Sequence record: PZ386974.1
Length of the DNA: 64,000 bases
Direction: 5' to 3' (one strand)
DNA from: a phage
Under the pieces are notes generated by a model, which had not been told where the DNA came from, made no database searches, and worked only from the letters and a program-made list of their open reading frames with translations. Below, one piece after another: positions 1,428-6,560 of this stretch (within the stretch, counting starts at the first letter, position 1; each line of letters opens with the position of its first letter). Made by a program: the position numbers and the translations under genes.

Positions 1428-1643
1428 TTACAAACTCATTTCTTTAATAAGGCTAATAAGTTTTGCCTTTTTAGAACGAAGCTTTTCTAAATGATGTCCA
1501 TTTGAACCGCGAACCACTAAAGAATTGATTTCAACTTCTAAGAAATTTAATTCTTCAACAAGTGCTTTACGTGGAGCATTCATACCAGGTTTAACTTTAC
1601 CGAAACGAGTAGTTGTGTTTTGGGTTAATTTCATTTTAGACAT
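1428..1643 (-). CDS. hypothetical protein (71 aa)
   Basis: ATG with GGAGA SD; shares identical 78 bp promoter-leader with motA. Confidence 0.5.
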   Translation of the reverse strand: MSKMKLTQNTTTRFGKVKPGMNAPRKALVEELNFLEVEINSLVVRGSNGHHLEKLRSKKAKLISLIKEMSL

Positions 1644-1712
1644 TTTATTTCTCCAATTTGGTTGTTTTGTTTTGATAGGTCTATACTATCATGTTTGAAG
1701 CAAAAGTAAACT
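1635..1712 (-). repeat. 78 bp direct repeat copy B (promoter-leader cassette including first 9 nt of 71-aa ORF)
   Basis: Identical to 1314..1391 except one mismatch; period 321 bp. Confidence 0.8.
1683..1711 (-). promoter_or_regulatory. early-type promoter cassette (duplicate of motA promoter)
   Basis: GTTTAC-N17-TAGTAT; upstream of 71-aa ORF. Confidence 0.5.
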
Positions 1713-1721
1713 GTTTTGTGA

Positions 1722-1752
1722 GAAAAATGCACAAAAGGGAGCCGAAGCTCCC
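1722..1752 (-). terminator. intrinsic terminator, UUCG-tetraloop hairpin GGGAGC/GCTCCC plus U-rich tail
   Basis: Stem 1737-1752, T-rich 1722-1736 on minus strand; downstream of gene 52. Confidence 0.5.
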
Positions 1753-1828
1753 TAATCATGTTTGTCCAACCAATACAGCCAAATCACTAGTACAGCTATT
1801 GCACCGAGAAATCCTAAGGCTAGGGCAC

Positions 1829-3154
1829 TCAAAGTGCCTCCAAGTCTTTAGTGTACTCGGTCACAACATCAGTAGACTTCCAATACTCATTTTCTTCTTT
1901 CTTAGCTTTAGCTTCTTCTGCTAGTTTACGTGCTTCGTCGGAAGTGATATGGAAGATGTTAAGACCTACCAGTTTATCGACATGTTCTTTATACATTTCG
2001 ATTTGTGCTAGCTCTTCAGTCAAAGCTTTACGAGTCTTGCCCTGAATCACAATTTCACCTGTAATAACTTTTTTGATGAAGTGTGCCTTAGCAAAAGCCA
2101 GTTTAAATGCTTTTTCAGATTCAAGGATTTTGTTGTCAATACGTTTCTGAACGTAAGTCTTACGGACTTCAACAAAATCTTTGATTAAGTCCACTACGTT
2201 ATCGTAGACAGCTAATTTACCCTTTTCATTAATCACTGTGATGTTTTGAGAACGGCGTTCGATGAGACTAAAATCTTTCATGATTTTTTCATGACGTAGC
2301 TCTTCATCATCAGGAAGCGAGTACTCTTTACGGAACTTCACTTTAAACCCAAAGCCGTGTTCACCACAATCATCTTCCCAAGAGATTAGACCTTTGTCTT
2401 CCAACGGGTCAAGAACCTTACTCACATACGTTTCACGGTCGAATTTATATGGGATTTCAGTTATCTGCATTTGAGTGCGAGATGTGAACTTATATGTTCC
2501 GTGAATCTCATAACGCCCATCAACTTCATGTACTTCACCACGGAATTCCGGGAATTCAACTTTTGGCTTAGTGACATTTTTACCTTGAAGAGCTTGTAAT
2601 ACAGCCTTTTTGACTGATTTAAAACTATGAGGCAGAATATTTGTTGCGTAACCGGTTGCAATACCAGAAACACCATTCAAAAGAACTGTCGGAATAATAG
2701 GAAGATAGAATTTTGGTGGAATGTGTTCTTTATCTTCATGAGCTGGAGCATATTCAGTATCTTTATATACGTTATAGAAATTTTTACTTACACGAGCAAA
2801 AATATAACGAGATGCTGCAGCTTTTTGGACTGTTCTAGAACCAAAGTTGCCTTGGCCATCTAACAGTGGATAGTTGTTGTTCCATGTGTTAGCCATCAAT
2901 GCACCTGCATCTTGTGCAGAAGATTCACCATGGTGATAACCTAAATCTGCAACACCACCTGCAATTGACGCAAGTTTATGAAATTTTTCTTTATTACCAC
3001 GAGCCAAATCTAACGCACGATGAACCACAAAACGTTGAACCGGCTTAAATCCATCAATCATGTTTGGGATTGCACGGTTTTCAACGGTGTACATCGCATA
3101 TGCTAAGGCTTCGTTATCAATAATACTTTTTAGATTACGAGAATTCAATTGCAT
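1829..3154 (-). CDS. 52: DNA topoisomerase II medium subunit (GyrA-like)
   Basis: 441 aa; N-terminus MQLNSRNLKSIIDNEALAYAMYTVENRAIPN matches recalled T4 gp52. Confidence 0.9.
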   Translation of the reverse strand: MQLNSRNLKSIIDNEALAYAMYTVENRAIPNMIDGFKPVQRFVVHRALDLARGNKEKFHKLASIAGGVADLGYHHGESSAQDAGALMANTWNNNYPLLDGQGNFGSRTVQKAAASRYIFARVSKNFYNVYKDTEYAPAHEDKEHIPPKFYLPIIPTVLLNGVSGIATGYATNILPHSFKSVKKAVLQALQGKNVTKPKVEFPEFRGEVHEVDGRYEIHGTYKFTSRTQMQITEIPYKFDRETYVSKVLDPLEDKGLISWEDDCGEHGFGFKVKFRKEYSLPDDEELRHEKIMKDFSLIERRSQNITVINEKGKLAVYDNVVDLIKDFVEVRKTYVQKRIDNKILESEKAFKLAFAKAHFIKKVITGEIVIQGKTRKALTEELAQIEMYKEHVDKLVGLNIFHITSDEARKLAEEAKAKKEENEYWKSTDVVTEYTKDLEAL

Positions 3155-3158
3155 ATTT

Positions 3159-3299
3159 TCACCATATTAATGAACGAATAGCCATTATAACATCTGAAAT
3201 GAAAAGCACTACTTTGATTAGTCCAAACATCACACCATAGTACAGAACCGTAAGCAACAACAAGAGCCCGAAGGCTCCTGCTAAGATTTTCTTAATCAT
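3159..3299 (-). CDS. small hydrophobic peptide (46 aa), below track threshold
   Basis: ATG at 3299-3297; translation MIKKILAGAFGLLLLLTVLYYGV...; TAATG-coupled to upstream small ORF; position equivalent to T4 52.1/ac/stp region. Confidence 0.3.
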   Translation of the reverse strand: MIKKILAGAFGLLLLLTVLYYGVMFGLIKVVLFISDVIMAIRSLIW

Positions 3300-3445
3300 T
3301 ACTCGCCTTTTAATACGTTAAGAAGAGCTAAGACCGCTAAGGTACCTTGTGATACGGCCTGTTGAAATACTGTTGTTTCACCTGTAACTAAAGTGTTAAC
3401 GAATAAAAACGACCAACACAGCAATGCAATAATCCATGCTACCAT
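3299..3445 (-). CDS. small membrane peptide (48 aa), below track threshold
   Basis: ATG at 3445-3443; translation MVAWIIALLCWSFLFVNTLVTGETTVFQQ...; position equivalent to T4 ac/stp region. Confidence 0.3.
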   Translation of the reverse strand: MVAWIIALLCWSFLFVNTLVTGETTVFQQAVSQGTLAVLALLNVLKGE

Positions 3446-3497
3446 TTTAATTACCTCAAAAATAAATTAAAGGCCTATTAAGCTAGGCCCGTATAAA

Positions 3498-3944
3498 TTA
3501 GTAACTCTGCAGAATGAATTTGAAATTATCTGCCAGAAGACGGTTCATTTCAGTGAGTGTTTGATATTCTGATGTATGGTTGCGAGTGAATGCCAGAGCC
3601 AATTGTCCTTTACCATAACCAGTAGTCAGTGGTTTCATGTTCTTAGCTGCAACAAAGATTACATCATATTCAATATTGTTAGTGCCCATGGTACGGGCTA
3701 GTTGCGAACGGCCTTGACGAATGTGAGAAAGAATTGCATCCAACCCTTGTTTAGAACGTTGACGTCCTACAAAGAATCGTGCTGCTACTTGTCGCCAATC
3801 AGATGAACCTTTAACAAAGAAGTAAAAACCTTCGCGAGAACGAAACTCTTTAGAAACTTCAGAACCGTATTCGCCATTACGAACTACTGCAACAACTTCA
3901 CCACCAACTGCCAGAAGGTCTTTACGAGTTAAATATTTGGACAT
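3498..3944 (-). CDS. ndd: possible Ndd nucleoid-disruption protein (148 aa)
   Basis: Size and position (clockwise of 52) match T4 ndd; ATG with GAGGAA SD; identity not verified by alignment. Confidence 0.4.
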
Positions 3945-3988
3945 GCTAATTTCCTCAATTGATTAATGTTTTTGTAATCCATGAGAGC

Positions 3989-4016
3989 ATTATACTCTGC
4001 TCTCAAGAGTTTGTAC
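3989..4016 (-). promoter_or_regulatory. early-type promoter (GTACAA-N-TATAAT) with inverted repeat GAGAGCA/TGCTCTC around -10
   Basis: Upstream of ndd-like ORF. Confidence 0.45.
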
Positions 4017-4020
4017 AATT

Positions 4021-4221
4021 TTATTCGGCTATATCAGAACGTTCAAAAAGCTCTTCAACAGTTAAACATTCAGTGTCATCTTCAATAAAGAATCGAGTCC
4101 AACACGTTGGGGCGATACAGTTATGAGTTTGTCCGGCGATAGAAGCTACACGAATAAGCTGCTGACCATTATTCAGAACAAATTTTTCACCAATTTCAAC
4201 ATCTTTAAAAAGCTTAGCCAT
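4021..4221 (-). CDS. hypothetical protein (66 aa)
   Basis: ATG with GAGGAA SD; own early promoter upstream. Confidence 0.45.
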   Translation of the reverse strand: MAKLFKDVEIGEKFVLNNGQQLIRVASIAGQTHNCIAPTCWTRFFIEDDTECLTVEELFERSDIAE

Positions 4222-4249
4222 TTTGTGTTCCTCGTGTTTCAGTAGGACT

Positions 4250-4279
4250 ACTATACCATAATCCTACCTTGATGTAAAC
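4250..4279 (-). promoter_or_regulatory. early-type promoter cassette (GTTTAC-N18-TATAGT), IR TAGGA.TA
   Basis: Upstream of 66-aa ORF. Confidence 0.45.
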
Positions 4280-4471
4280 AATTAAATTACATTAAAATAT
4301 GTTAAAGCCAACCATGTTCCAGTGAACGAACATGCGATGTAAAAACCCGTATCACAAATTGTTCTTAGTACAATAAGAAGTGCATTTTTCATAAGTACCT
4401 CAATACAATTGAAAATATTATACAAATCATAGGGATACTAAGCAACCATATTCCGATCCACATTTTAGAGC

Positions 4472-4761: not shown

Positions 4762-4791
4762 ACTATATCATAGTCCTACTTAGTTGTAAAC
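4762..4791 (-). promoter_or_regulatory. early-type promoter cassette (GTTTAC-N18-TATAGT), IR TAGGACTA/TAGTCCTA
   Basis: Upstream of 87-aa ORF. Confidence 0.5.
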
Positions 4792-4803: not shown

Positions 4804-5361
4804 TTAAAGTTGAAGATACCACCCGTTGTAGTTGCTCTTGCGGACGATTTTCTTTAGGTCTTCATGGTCTCCCACAAACTTTATAGAATAAGAGAAGACG
4901 TCAGGTGAGGTTTCTTTGGCATCTAATATAATAATGCAATCTGCGACTCGATGGTTCAAGAAGGGGCCTATATTGATTCCATTACCACCCGGATAATCAC
5001 CACTGTATCCTGTGGTAACCGAAATCCATTTAGAATCCATCTGATGTGTCTTGACTTCTACACGAATTCCACAATATTTGGGATGGGCTAACACGTCCCA
5101 TGCATACGTGTACGGGTCTTCTACATCTTCAATACCTTTATTAACATATCCGTCTAGCCAATTTGCTACTACATACTCTGCAAAGACCGCAACCTTACAA
5201 CGTCGAACTACATCTTCTTTGTTTTGGTCAGGATTTTGGCTCAGGGAATACCGAGCCGTGTCAGCAATCTTCACCTTCATTTCACTAGTCAAAAACTCAT
5301 TCGACAGGATAAATGTCGGAAGATTCTTCAGTCTCAACAGTCCCAAGTTCGTCTTTACCAT
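4804..5361 (-). CDS. possible DenB endonuclease IV (185 aa from internal ATG)
   Basis: Track ORF 4804..5424 trimmed to ATG at 5361 with AGAGG SD; 185 aa equals T4 DenB length; position between ndd and rIIB. Confidence 0.4.
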   Translation of the reverse strand: MVKTNLGLLRLKNLPTFILSNEFLTSEMKVKIADTARYSLSQNPDQNKEDVVRRCKVAVFAEYVVANWLDGYVNKGIEDVEDPYTYAWDVLAHPKYCGIRVEVKTHQMDSKWISVTTGYSGDYPGGNGINIGPFLNHRVADCIIILDAKETSPDVFSYSIKFVGDHEDLKKIVRKSNYNGWYLQL

Positions 5362-5584
5362 AGATACCTCTGATGTGTAGTTCGCCAAAATAAATGCGGT
5401 CACCTTCTTCAAGATATTCTGCATCTACAGGCGGAATTTCAATAACAACTTCGTCGCATTCTAACCAGCCGTAGTGTGCATCGCCGGGATGTTTTACCAA
5501 TTTAGCACAATAAACTGATTTACACTTATGATGACCACGAAGACTAGCAATTTTGGATTCTGATACGTCAAATGGATGAATCAT
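5297..5584 (-). CDS. hypothetical protein (95 aa; denB.1 position)
   Basis: Track start is TTG; first ATG at 5584 follows the rIIB terminator. Confidence 0.4.
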   Translation of the reverse strand: MIHPFDVSESKIASLRGHHKCKSVYCAKLVKHPGDAHYGWLECDEVVIEIPPVDAEYLEEGDRIYFGELHIRGIYGKDELGTVETEESSDIYPVE

Positions 5585-5594
5585 AATTACCCCT

Positions 5595-5619
5595 AAAGAA
5601 AAAGGGGACCGAAGTCCCC
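5595..5619 (-). terminator. intrinsic terminator, UUCG-tetraloop hairpin GGGGAC/GTCCCC plus U-run
   Basis: Immediately downstream of rIIB stop. Confidence 0.55.
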
Positions 5620-5624
5620 AATTA

Positions 5625-6560
5625 TTATTCTGCAAACAATTCAGTAACGTCTGAAATTACTTCATAACGACATGTACGCATCTTAGCATCACCATAGTCA
5701 ACTGGGATGGACACAACATCACGTGGATGAACTTTAACCTTAACAACTTTATCTGAGCTAGAACCAAAGTAACGAATATATGATTTAGCACAAACATGTA
5801 GACCGCGAGAACAAGTTTGTGTATCATCGTCGTTAACTCGAGTACGAGGCATTGAAACAACTTTACCTGGGGAGTTATCAAATGTACCACTATAGCAGTC
5901 TAAATAGTCCTTACGAACTACTTTCCACGCATAGAAATGACCATCTTCAGTGATTTCAATATCGTTTGCAACCAAGAAGTCGAATAAACGTTGTACAGCT
6001 TTTTCGCTTGGGTTTTCTAACAGGTTTTCAAGGAATGGCAGATAGAATTTAAAGTCTTCACCTTTTTCCATGGAATCAATAATACGGTTAACCAGCCCTG
6101 AACGAATCTCTATACCTTGATAAAATAAACTACCACCTTCAATAGTAACATTACCATCAACAAACTTAGTAATAGCTTTCTTGACGTTAATAAGTTCGAC
6201 AGCTTTACTAAGGTTTCCTGCGACCAAATTAGCTTTAATTTCTTCAAAATTTGCATGACTTGATGGGGTCGCATTGTATGCTACGCGTCCTTCAATGATT
6301 GAGATAAATTTAGATGACGCGTTCCATACGATTTCTGGACGATGTCCGCCGATAATAGGTTCATCATTTTCTGGGACCTGTTCTTCGTCTTCAAATTCAG
6401 CTGCTTTCTCTTCAGCTTTAAAATTCTTAACAATCTTACGAAGAGTATCTGTTGAAATGTCGAAGTAATCGGCAATTTCTTTACGGGTCCATTTGCCTGA
6501 TTTGACCAGGTCGTAAGCTTCTAACTGTTCTTCTTGGGACAAGCATTTGATATTGTACAT
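5625..6560 (-). CDS. rIIB: rIIB membrane-associated protein
   Basis: 311 aa; N-terminus MYNIKCL matches recalled T4 rIIB; adjacent to rIIA. Confidence 0.85.
   Translation of the reverse strand: MYNIKCLSQEEQLEAYDLVKSGKWTRKEIADYFDISTDTLRKIVKNFKAEEKAAEFEDEEQVPENDEPIIGGHRPEIVWNASSKFISIIEGRVAYNATPSSHANFEEIKANLVAGNLSKAVELINVKKAITKFVDGNVTIEGGSLFYQGIEIRSGLVNRIIDSMEKGEDFKFYLPFLENLLENPSEKAVQRLFDFLVANDIEITEDGHFYAWKVVRKDYLDCYSGTFDNSPGKVVSMPRTRVNDDDTQTCSRGLHVCAKSYIRYFGSSSDKVVKVKVHPRDVVSIPVDYGDAKMRTCRYEVISDVTELFAE

Follow-up and report, generated by a model that had tools for sequence, protein, structure and literature searches.

The two small hydrophobic open reading frames (ORFs) adjoining each other upstream of gene 52 in the window, i.e., in the whole 64,000-nt stretch of phage DNA analysed here, are, as judged by sequence comparison, the Mosigvirus orthologs of the known early T4 genes ac and 52.1. 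We are highly confident in the explanation that combines this orthology with an Ac product that would act as an acridine-sensitizing inner-membrane hairpin and with 52.1 probably being coupled to ac. Both are real genes, beyond chance open frames, since they match curated or clustered protein families and evolve under purifying selection across genera. The finding itself is ordinary, as both ORFs are counterparts of already annotated T4 genes: the pair is known, and the window adds one more copy of these two T-even genes and lacks stp.

Genomic organization of the locus

The features of the locus are listed here.

3299..3445, minus strand: ac, 48 aa, reading MVAWIIALLCWSFLFVNTLVTGETTVFQQAVSQGTLAVLALLNVLKGE
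3159..3299, minus strand: 52.1, 46 aa, reading MIKKILAGAFGLLLLLTVLYYGVMFGLIKVVLFISDVIMAIRSLIW
3297..3301, minus strand: TAATG stop/start overlap of ac and 52.1, read directly from the sequence
3155..3158, minus strand: spacer of 4 nt, TGGTGAAAATATG, between the 52.1 stop codon (TGA) and the gene 52 ATG
3454..3457, minus strand: Shine–Dalgarno (SD) sequence GAGG of ac, 8 nt 5′ of the ac ATG
1829..3154, minus strand: gene 52, DNA topoisomerase II medium subunit, 3′ of the pair (identified by Pfam and PHROG)
3498..3944, minus strand: ndd, nucleoid disruption protein, 5′ neighbour of the pair (PF06591, Phage_T4_Ndd, E = 4e-89)
3989..4017, minus strand: sigma-70-type promoter-like site, TGTACA-17-TATAAT, 5′ of ndd (consensus scan only, 10/12 matches)
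3458..3490, minus strand: intrinsic-terminator-like hairpin GGGCCUAGCUUAAUAGGCCU with an interrupted U tract, after ndd (terminator scan)
3258..3283, minus strand: 11-bp RNA hairpin with a C(UUCG)G tetraloop, spanning 52.1 codons 6–14 (fold energy)

On the minus strand, the junction of the two ORFs reads GGCGAGTAATGATTAAG, where the TAATG arises because the ac TAA and the 52.1 ATG have base 3299 in common. The initial annotation had described two strongly hydrophobic ORFs of 48 and 46 aa joined by a TAATG overlap and flanked by an ndd-like ORF and gene 52, and this description holds in full: both ORFs and the overlap are present on the minus strand, the grand average of hydropathy (GRAVY) is 1.21 for the ac product and 1.80 for the 52.1 product, and both flanking genes match their Pfam families (E = 4e-89 for ndd and E = 8e-78 for gene 52). 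As a background for the hydropathy values, 103 ATG-initiated ORFs of 40–60 aa in the six frames of the window have a mean GRAVY of 0.15, with values of at least 1.3 in three ORFs and at least 1.5 in one. The Pfam model matched by the gene 52 product is PF00521 (DNA_topoisoIV); the same protein matches phrog_551 (DNA topoisomerase II) with E = 4e-217. The promoter-like site at 3989..4017 is the nearest candidate promoter for ndd, ac, 52.1, and gene 52.

A 401-nt query over the pair matches 155 phage genomes at an identity of at least 80%, and 152 of these 155 at an identity of at least 95%. The best-matching annotated records that we examined, including HX01, ATK47, and SSE1, belong to Mosigvirus, and by sequence the window is assigned to a Mosigvirus, that is, an RB69/HX01-like T-even phage. 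The ATK47 annotation names the two ORFs “acridine resistance protein” and “putative membrane protein, similar to T4 gp52.1,” and in HX01 both are annotated as well, the upstream one under the name Ac. The gene order in T4 is ndd–stp–ac–52.1–52, and when T4 Ac and T4 52.1 were searched against the whole window with tblastn, the only significant matches were exactly these two ORFs; an alignment test of family membership placed them inside the Ac and DUF7396 families. The suggestion that the pair lies where T4 carries ac and 52.1 is thus borne out as orthology by BLASTP, PHROG, Pfam, and gene order.

The third T4 gene placed in this interval, stp, is the part of the suggestion that did not stand. 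The gap between ndd and ac has only 52 nt; a terminator hairpin and the SD sequence lie inside it, and it contains no ORF. This hairpin (3458..3490; fold energy −11.4 kcal/mol, z = −2.2), also a putative terminator in the ATK47 annotation, occupies the place of T4 stp, so that ac is preceded by a terminator in the window and by stp in T4. Alignment with T4 Ac and Stp, proposed earlier as a check, succeeded for Ac (BLASTP, 37% identity over 35 aa, E = 2e-7) and failed for Stp, whose best tblastn match in the 64 kb had E = 0.19 and lay elsewhere than in the ndd–ac gap. No 26-aa ORF of the Stp type (PF08133, starting with MSNFHNEH) follows ndd within the 52-nt gap; the MSNFHNEH motif is absent in all Mosigvirus-type loci examined, and present in most Tequatrovirus, Gaprivervirus, and Dhakavirus loci. 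Located in the corresponding ndd-to-52 interval of T4, Stp activates the PrrC anticodon nuclease; with 26 aa, it is soluble and not a membrane peptide, is not hydrophobic, and is unrelated to either ORF. Hence, of the initial proposal that such small peptides affect host membrane and restriction functions, the restriction part does not apply to these two ORFs.

Conservation and predicted structure of Ac

The product of the upstream ORF belongs to phrog_2501, which is matched by both the window Ac (E = 3e-22) and T4 Ac (E = 2e-25). A profile search for the family yielded 29 clusters at 90% identity, with proteins named acridine resistance protein from RB33, RB68, T6, and KP179. The window Ac is 58% identical to Ac of RB32, whose record carries the remark “more similar to RB69,” and thereby falls into the RB69/RB32 subtype. 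Its genomic position is that of the family, from the ndd side (with or without stp) to 52.1, on one strand, and with the stop codon overlapping the 52.1 start. No model in the Pfam copy searched matches the window Ac, though family members carry a precomputed PF26944 tag, and an NCBIfam search gave no match near any cut-off. Ac and 52.1 were also considered as paralogs of each other, which is ruled out by an hhalign probability of 0.1%.

Among 27 cluster representatives of Ac, residues W11, T18, V26, Q29, and Q33 are invariant, and S25 and G34 are nearly so. G34 of the window Ac aligns with G38 of T4 Ac, in a column conserved in at least 90% of the 27 sequences, and the G38R substitution in T4 Ac leads to acriflavine resistance (preprint 10.1101/2025.06.30.662393). 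The ratio dN/dS is 0.14–0.47 among other Ac pairs; the value of 0.80 for the window–T4 pair is saturated and unreliable.

AlphaFold2 with the family alignment yields two helices in Ac, at residues 2–21 and 27–45, linked by a loop at residues 22–26 (GETTV), with a mean pLDDT of 87, i.e., Ac is predicted to form a helical hairpin. Helix 1 has the character of an ordinary transmembrane segment; helix 2, with its lower hydrophobicity (mean H about 0.4), carries the conserved Q/S/G residues (Q29, Q33, G34) on one face. The same two-helix architecture was given to T4 Ac by ESMFold (preprint 10.1101/2025.06.30.662393). In PDB, the best sequence match to Ac had E = 1.3, and a Foldseek search with the AlphaFold2 model returned nothing below E = 2; Foldseek is of little help for Ac and 52.1, as short helical models are uninformative.

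Thus, the window Ac and T4 Ac (NP_049877, UniProt P18924) have in common the slot directly 5′ of 52.1 and overlapping it, the protein family, the predicted two-helix structure, a similar size (48 and 51 aa, respectively), and the core W..T....SVF.QA..QG, including the glycine that is the G38R site. They differ in that identity is only 32–37%, and in their C-terminal ends: the window Ac ends in KGE, with the 1-nt overlap at TAATG, whereas T4 Ac ends in ND, with an 8-nt overlap, ATGATTAA.

Conservation and predicted structure of the 52.1 product

The downstream ORF is 72% identical to T4 gp52.1 over all 46 aa (E = 2e-18), scores 79.4 bits against the Pfam family DUF7396 (PF24129; gathering cut-off 27) with residues 1–46 covering the 46-position model, and matches phrog_3595 at E = 9e-23. 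T4 gp52.1 (NP_049876, UniProt P18922) likewise has 46 aa, belongs to PF24129 and phrog_3595, and shares with the window peptide the N-terminal MIKKIL, the core YYGVMFGLI.VVLFISDVIMA, and the terminal SL(I/V)W; in both phages, the stop codon lies 4 nt before the gene 52 ATG. Differences are seen in the N-terminal third, which reads AGAFGLLLLLTV in the window and GYSLALAALLVA in T4.

The ratio dN/dS for 52.1 is 0.05–0.25 in most pairs and reaches 0.48 (five genera; synonymous sites near saturation), and the 27 C-terminal residues are almost invariant; in most pairwise comparisons, 52.1 is under stronger purifying selection than Ac. The product is predicted to be a fully hydrophobic helical membrane peptide: AlphaFold2 with the family alignment gives one continuous helix at residues 2–45 (mean pLDDT 96), and the few polar residues, K/Q29, D36, and S43, plus S35 and R42, align as a stripe. 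Neither the sequence nor, via Foldseek, the AlphaFold2 model of 52.1 has matches in PDB. An exhaustive profile search of 1.84 billion representatives returned only nine clusters at 50% identity, and hence the 52.1 family is narrow; in the sequences searched, both the Ac and 52.1 families are confined to T-even-like phages. T4 deletions removing ac together with most or all of 52.1 (GT7-like, sa-delta-9) are viable, and 52.1 is dispensable in T4 in the laboratory.

Probable translational coupling and exchange of the upstream peptide

The comparison set comprised seven GenBank representatives (Mosigvirus, two Tequatrovirus, two Gaprivervirus, Dhakavirus, and Jiaodavirus) and 17 IMG/VR loci. All of them share one layout: a hydrophobic ORF of 43–55 aa overlaps 52.1, which is followed by gene 52. 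The overlap of the upstream ORF with 52.1 is 1, 4, 7, or 8 nt (7/7 GenBank and 17/17 IMG/VR), 52.1 has 46 aa wherever it is complete, and the distance from its stop to the gene 52 start is 4–8 nt in the GenBank representatives and in 16/16 IMG/VR loci with gene 52 located.

The occupant of the upstream slot, however, is not always Ac. In VR7, Bp7, and their relatives, it is a phrog_9347 peptide, and a divergent contig (L025) has a third type of slot peptide, of 43 aa. Both were considered as divergent Ac proteins and ruled out by hhalign, with probabilities of 4% for the VR7/Bp7 peptides and 1% for the 43-aa peptide. The phrog_9347 peptides (VR7 ORF281c, Bp7 gp095, and the JS98-like ones) share with Ac the slot and the overlap with 52.1; they have 53–55 aa and two hydrophobic segments, often end in ND, and have no homology to Ac detectable at that hhalign probability. 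This non-homologous replacement of the upstream peptide is possibly new, and it is not specific to the window.

Ribosome-binding signals are unevenly distributed over the three genes. In the window, the energy of the anti-SD duplex is −6.9 kcal/mol for ac, −4.2 kcal/mol for 52.1 (AAGG), and −2.8 kcal/mol for gene 52; the corresponding averages across the lineages are −6.5 kcal/mol (upstream gene) and −1.7 kcal/mol (52.1). The strong SD sequence is always on the upstream gene, and T4 52.1 has essentially none. The combination of overlap and SD pattern is the expected signature of termination–reinitiation coupling, and the translational coupling proposed in the initial annotation gains support from the overlap in all lineages, the strong SD of ac, and the weak SD of 52.1; in particular, coupling is favoured by 52.1 usually having no SD of its own. 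Most synthesis of the 52.1 peptide would then come from ribosomes that have just finished ac and start again at the AUG overlapping its stop codon. With its start only 4 nt past the 52.1 stop, gene 52 probably receives ribosomes from the string as well. As 52.1 of the window has a weak SD, coupling here may be less obligatory than in T4.

In T4, ac and 52.1 transcripts are early. In a mass-spectrometry study of T4-infected cells, neither Ac nor gp52.1 was detected (Class_P = NA), which is unsurprising for such small hydrophobic products; with no peptide seen by this method, the evidence for translation of 52.1 is evolutionary only.

RNA hairpin within 52.1

The 5′ third of 52.1 contains an RNA hairpin (3258..3283), its start being 17 nt 3′ of the A of the AUG. 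Its fold energy is −16.5 kcal/mol, with z = −2.9 relative to dinucleotide shuffles and z = −3.4 (p = 0.002) relative to 500 synonymous recodings. In eight sequences representing two hairpin types, codons 5–22 fold better than 500 synonymous recodings (z from −3.4 to −4.6, p ≤ 0.002); the effect is weaker in KP179 (z = −1.6), and the C-terminal control segment of 52.1 shows no folding excess over synonymous recodings. The structure differs between lineages: where the window has its single CUUCGG hairpin in 52.1, two other hairpins are found in T4-type phages, and a further one in KP179. In 13 distinct T4-type sequences, 169/169 pair cells are paired, and all variation in helix 2 of the T4 type keeps the pairing, with one pair changed from C–G to U–A by a double change. 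Since these very sequences served to derive the structure, and the lineages are related, the evidence for selection is suggestive, not conclusive. An Rfam search of positions 1600–4400, with E up to 1, gave no match, and in the ATK47 record the 3258..3283 hairpin is called a putative terminator by ARNold.

A selected RNA hairpin in 52.1 may be new, and again is not specific to the window. It could possibly act as a roadblock favouring reinitiation at the SD-poor 52.1 start, or, equally only as a possibility, could work before gene 52 as an attenuator or as a barrier to processing. We also considered a MotA-dependent middle promoter at this place (TGCTT-N12-TAnnnT, in T4 and in the window), and rejected it: its spacing falls about 2 nt short of that in the 20 good matches of the window, and the variation between lineages preserves pairs, which fits an RNA structure better than a MotA box. 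A 26-aa ORF 3′ of gene 52, considered as a relative of T4 MotA.1, was found to be unrelated.

These observations bear on whether the peptides themselves matter. One could imagine that ac and 52.1 are mainly translated leaders that, together with the RNA hairpin, bring ribosomes to gene 52, the peptides being of minor importance. The tight packing of the three cistrons, with a 1-nt overlap and a 4-nt spacer, agrees with that, as do the little or no SD of 52.1 in most lineages and the weak SD of gene 52 in many, the structured RNA element that every lineage has in the first third of 52.1, and the tolerance of the upstream slot to unrelated replacement peptides. We nevertheless consider a leader role very improbable, as the C-terminal 27 residues of 52.1 stay nearly invariant although synonymous sites are saturated (dN/dS mostly 0.05–0.25), and a single missense change in T4 Ac, G38R, has a phenotype, so the sequence of the peptide matters; moreover, T4 still grows after loss of ac plus the initial two thirds of 52.1, so that gene 52 expression is not strictly dependent on them. 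That the ORFs are chance, unexpressed open frames in AT-rich phage DNA has next to no probability: although they are short (46–48 aa) and the peptides of their T4 orthologs went unseen by mass spectrometry, conservation with purifying selection over at least five T-even genera effectively refutes this, and the matches to curated family models, the strong SD of ac, and the genetic phenotype of T4 mutations inside the ac ORF all argue for genes. The preferred reading is that of two coupled genes for conserved peptides, and the coupling architecture with the embedded hairpin offers a compact natural system for termination–reinitiation at start codons lacking an SD sequence.

A further reading would unite all these elements, i.e., the exchangeable two-helix peptide, the overlap, 52.1, gene 52, and the selected hairpin, into one functional module. 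We regard it as unlikely. Here, the hairpin starting 17–21 nt after the SD-poor 52.1 start would hold the terminating ribosome and drive reinitiation, and gp52.1 would be the membrane partner of either the upstream peptide or the T4-type topoisomerase II, the latter being membrane-associated according to a remark in the RB32 annotation; the slot would be swapped among unrelated families because its target would be a variable host envelope component such as AcrB. In a weaker variant of the module, the ac or 52.1 peptide would underlie the phage-induced stimulation of phosphatidylglycerol synthesis. According to a review, a function stimulating this synthesis post infection maps to the sa-delta-9 interval and is lost in T4 sa-delta-9; the same review describes loss of the stimulation also in mutants whose only missing functions are dCTPase, endonuclease IV, and Alc, which points away from ac and 52.1.

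Ac and acridine sensitivity

What Ac does can be approached through its T4 ortholog. After deletion or mutation of ac, T4 reaches a titre four orders of magnitude higher on plates with acriflavine, and expression of Ac alone in Escherichia coli sensitizes the cells to acriflavine by 3 logs, with no toxicity by itself (preprint 10.1101/2025.06.30.662393). Ac-expressing cells are also hypersensitive to ampicillin; the authors take this as a sign of impaired efflux and propose that Ac, located in the inner membrane, blocks the AcrAB–TolC efflux (preprint 10.1101/2025.06.30.662393); the block is cited in PMC13250531 and restated, as an assumption, in a 2026 PNAS paper. By analogy with T4, the window Ac would be an inner-membrane helical hairpin of about 50 aa that causes acridines to build up in cells infected by the phage or expressing Ac. 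The acridine phenotype of Mosigvirus Ac is thus extrapolated, given the only 32–37% identity to T4 Ac.

A natural point of comparison is AcrZ, a 49-aa inner-membrane peptide of E. coli that binds AcrB. AcrZ and Ac are alike in size and membrane location, and the analogy would be functional only, provided that the efflux hypothesis holds. AcrZ is a single helix, whereas Ac is a predicted hairpin; Ac would inhibit efflux, whereas AcrZ aids it for some substrates. We found no sequence similarity between Ac and AcrZ (tblastn; PDB search below E = 1), and no AcrZ-like fold was found for Ac by Foldseek against PDB (nothing below E = 2).

Accumulation of acridines may have two causes, since net accumulation cannot tell uptake from efflux. 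According to the classical Silver model, Ac raises inward permeability rather than blocking efflux; for that, it would either perturb the bilayer or, by oligomerizing along the polar side of helix 2, form a small selective conduit, with acridines entering faster as a result. In the early T2/T4 work, as far as it is described in the preprint, cells infected with ac+ phage took up more dye (preprint 10.1101/2025.06.30.662393), and the properties of helix 2, moderately hydrophobic with the conserved Q/S/G on one side as in pore-lining helices, would suit a conduit, as would the lack of similarity of Ac to any AcrB-binding peptide in the PDB, tblastn, and Foldseek searches. On the other hand, a leaky pore is hard to reconcile with viable counts that were not reduced by Ac expression (1.5e9 versus 2.3e9 CFU/ml), and the ampicillin hypersensitivity, as read by the preprint authors, also speaks for impaired efflux. 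As the older model stands and no similarity to AcrZ was found, we hold only tentatively, at somewhat less than even chances, that Ac binds and blocks the AcrAB–TolC pump, and consider increased uptake rather unlikely.

If true, a phage peptide disabling a multidrug efflux pump would be of practical interest. The divergent Mosigvirus Ac, with its invariant core, could help to define the key residues if the interaction between Ac and AcrAB–TolC is tested.

Peptides encoded upstream of 52.1

The gene for the conserved membrane peptide 52.1 and its overlap with the preceding gene remain constant despite a changing upstream neighbor. The position overlapping the 52.1 start is taken by Ac (phrog_2501) in some T-even genera, by phrog_9347 peptides in others, and by a third type, of 43 aa, in the divergent contig L025. 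These occupants, differing by T-even genus, are unrelated small hydrophobic two-helix peptides. Slot peptide genes overlapping the 52.1 start were located in the following compared loci:

L007, 841-1008
L008, 778-939
L012 and L017-L023, about 1340-1508
L025, 1370-1501

In T4, ac and 52.1 are among several small membrane peptide genes of the sa-delta-9 interval (52.1 to denB); deletion of the interval as a whole abolishes the phage-induced stimulation of phosphatidylglycerol synthesis (PMC6071114).

RNA hairpin within 52.1

RNA folding and comparison with synonymous recodings point to a stable RNA hairpin inside the 52.1 gene, in the 5' third of its reading frame:

3258-3283, minus strand, hairpin in the window
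L003 (T4) 6297-6333, minus strand, equivalent segment
Columns 18-54, the hairpin region in alignment A5

The stability of this segment is well above that of the synonymous recodings (z -3.4 to -4.6). The hairpin is capped by a CUUCGG tetraloop in Mosigvirus, and T4-type phages have two different hairpins in its place; all variation among the T4-type sequences keeps the pairing, with one compensatory pair. No match for the hairpin was found in Rfam.

Flanking features

The window phage lacks stp, the gene for the activator of the PrrC anticodon nuclease, as does every Mosigvirus-type locus examined (L009, L010, L024), and the stp position is filled by a terminator-like hairpin following ndd. 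Two further GC-rich hairpins, each with a C(UUCG)G tetraloop followed by a U tract, look like terminators, and a consensus scan yielded three promoter-like sites (all window, minus strand):

1736-1753, hairpin after the 26-aa ORF/gene 52 unit
1752-1832, 26-aa ORF, TTG start, MSALALGFLGAIAVLVIWLYWLDKHD
3446-3497, interval between ndd and ac that contains the terminator-like hairpin
3989-4017, promoter-like site upstream of ndd
4250-4278, promoter-like site upstream of the ndd.1-like ORF
4762-4790, promoter-like site upstream of the next ORF after the ndd.1-like one
5604-5619, hairpin upstream of the DenB-position ORF (4804..5424)

In two of the three promoter-like sites the same scan shows TTTACA separated by 17 nt from a TG-extended TATAGT, a pattern resembling T4 early promoters.

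The 26-aa ORF, the third small and hydrophobic one, shares bases with the stop codon of gene 52 (CTTTGA) and is annotated as hypothetical in HX01. The equivalent position in T4 is occupied by MotA.1, to which the 26-aa product shows no similarity.

Public records

Klebsiella phage KP179 (MH729874; L006, about 1110-1250) encodes a clear 46-aa homolog of 52.1, MIKKILIGAALVAALLLILYYGMIYGVVYIVLFISDVIVQIGSLIW, missing from the GenBank annotation. KP179 and TH41 also carry an extra 57-aa membrane peptide (phrog_5941) between ndd and ac. In the ATK47 record (KT184309; L001, 1700-1846), the note attached to the Ac CDS repeats the Ndd text ("binds host HU protein..."), a minor slip in public annotation.
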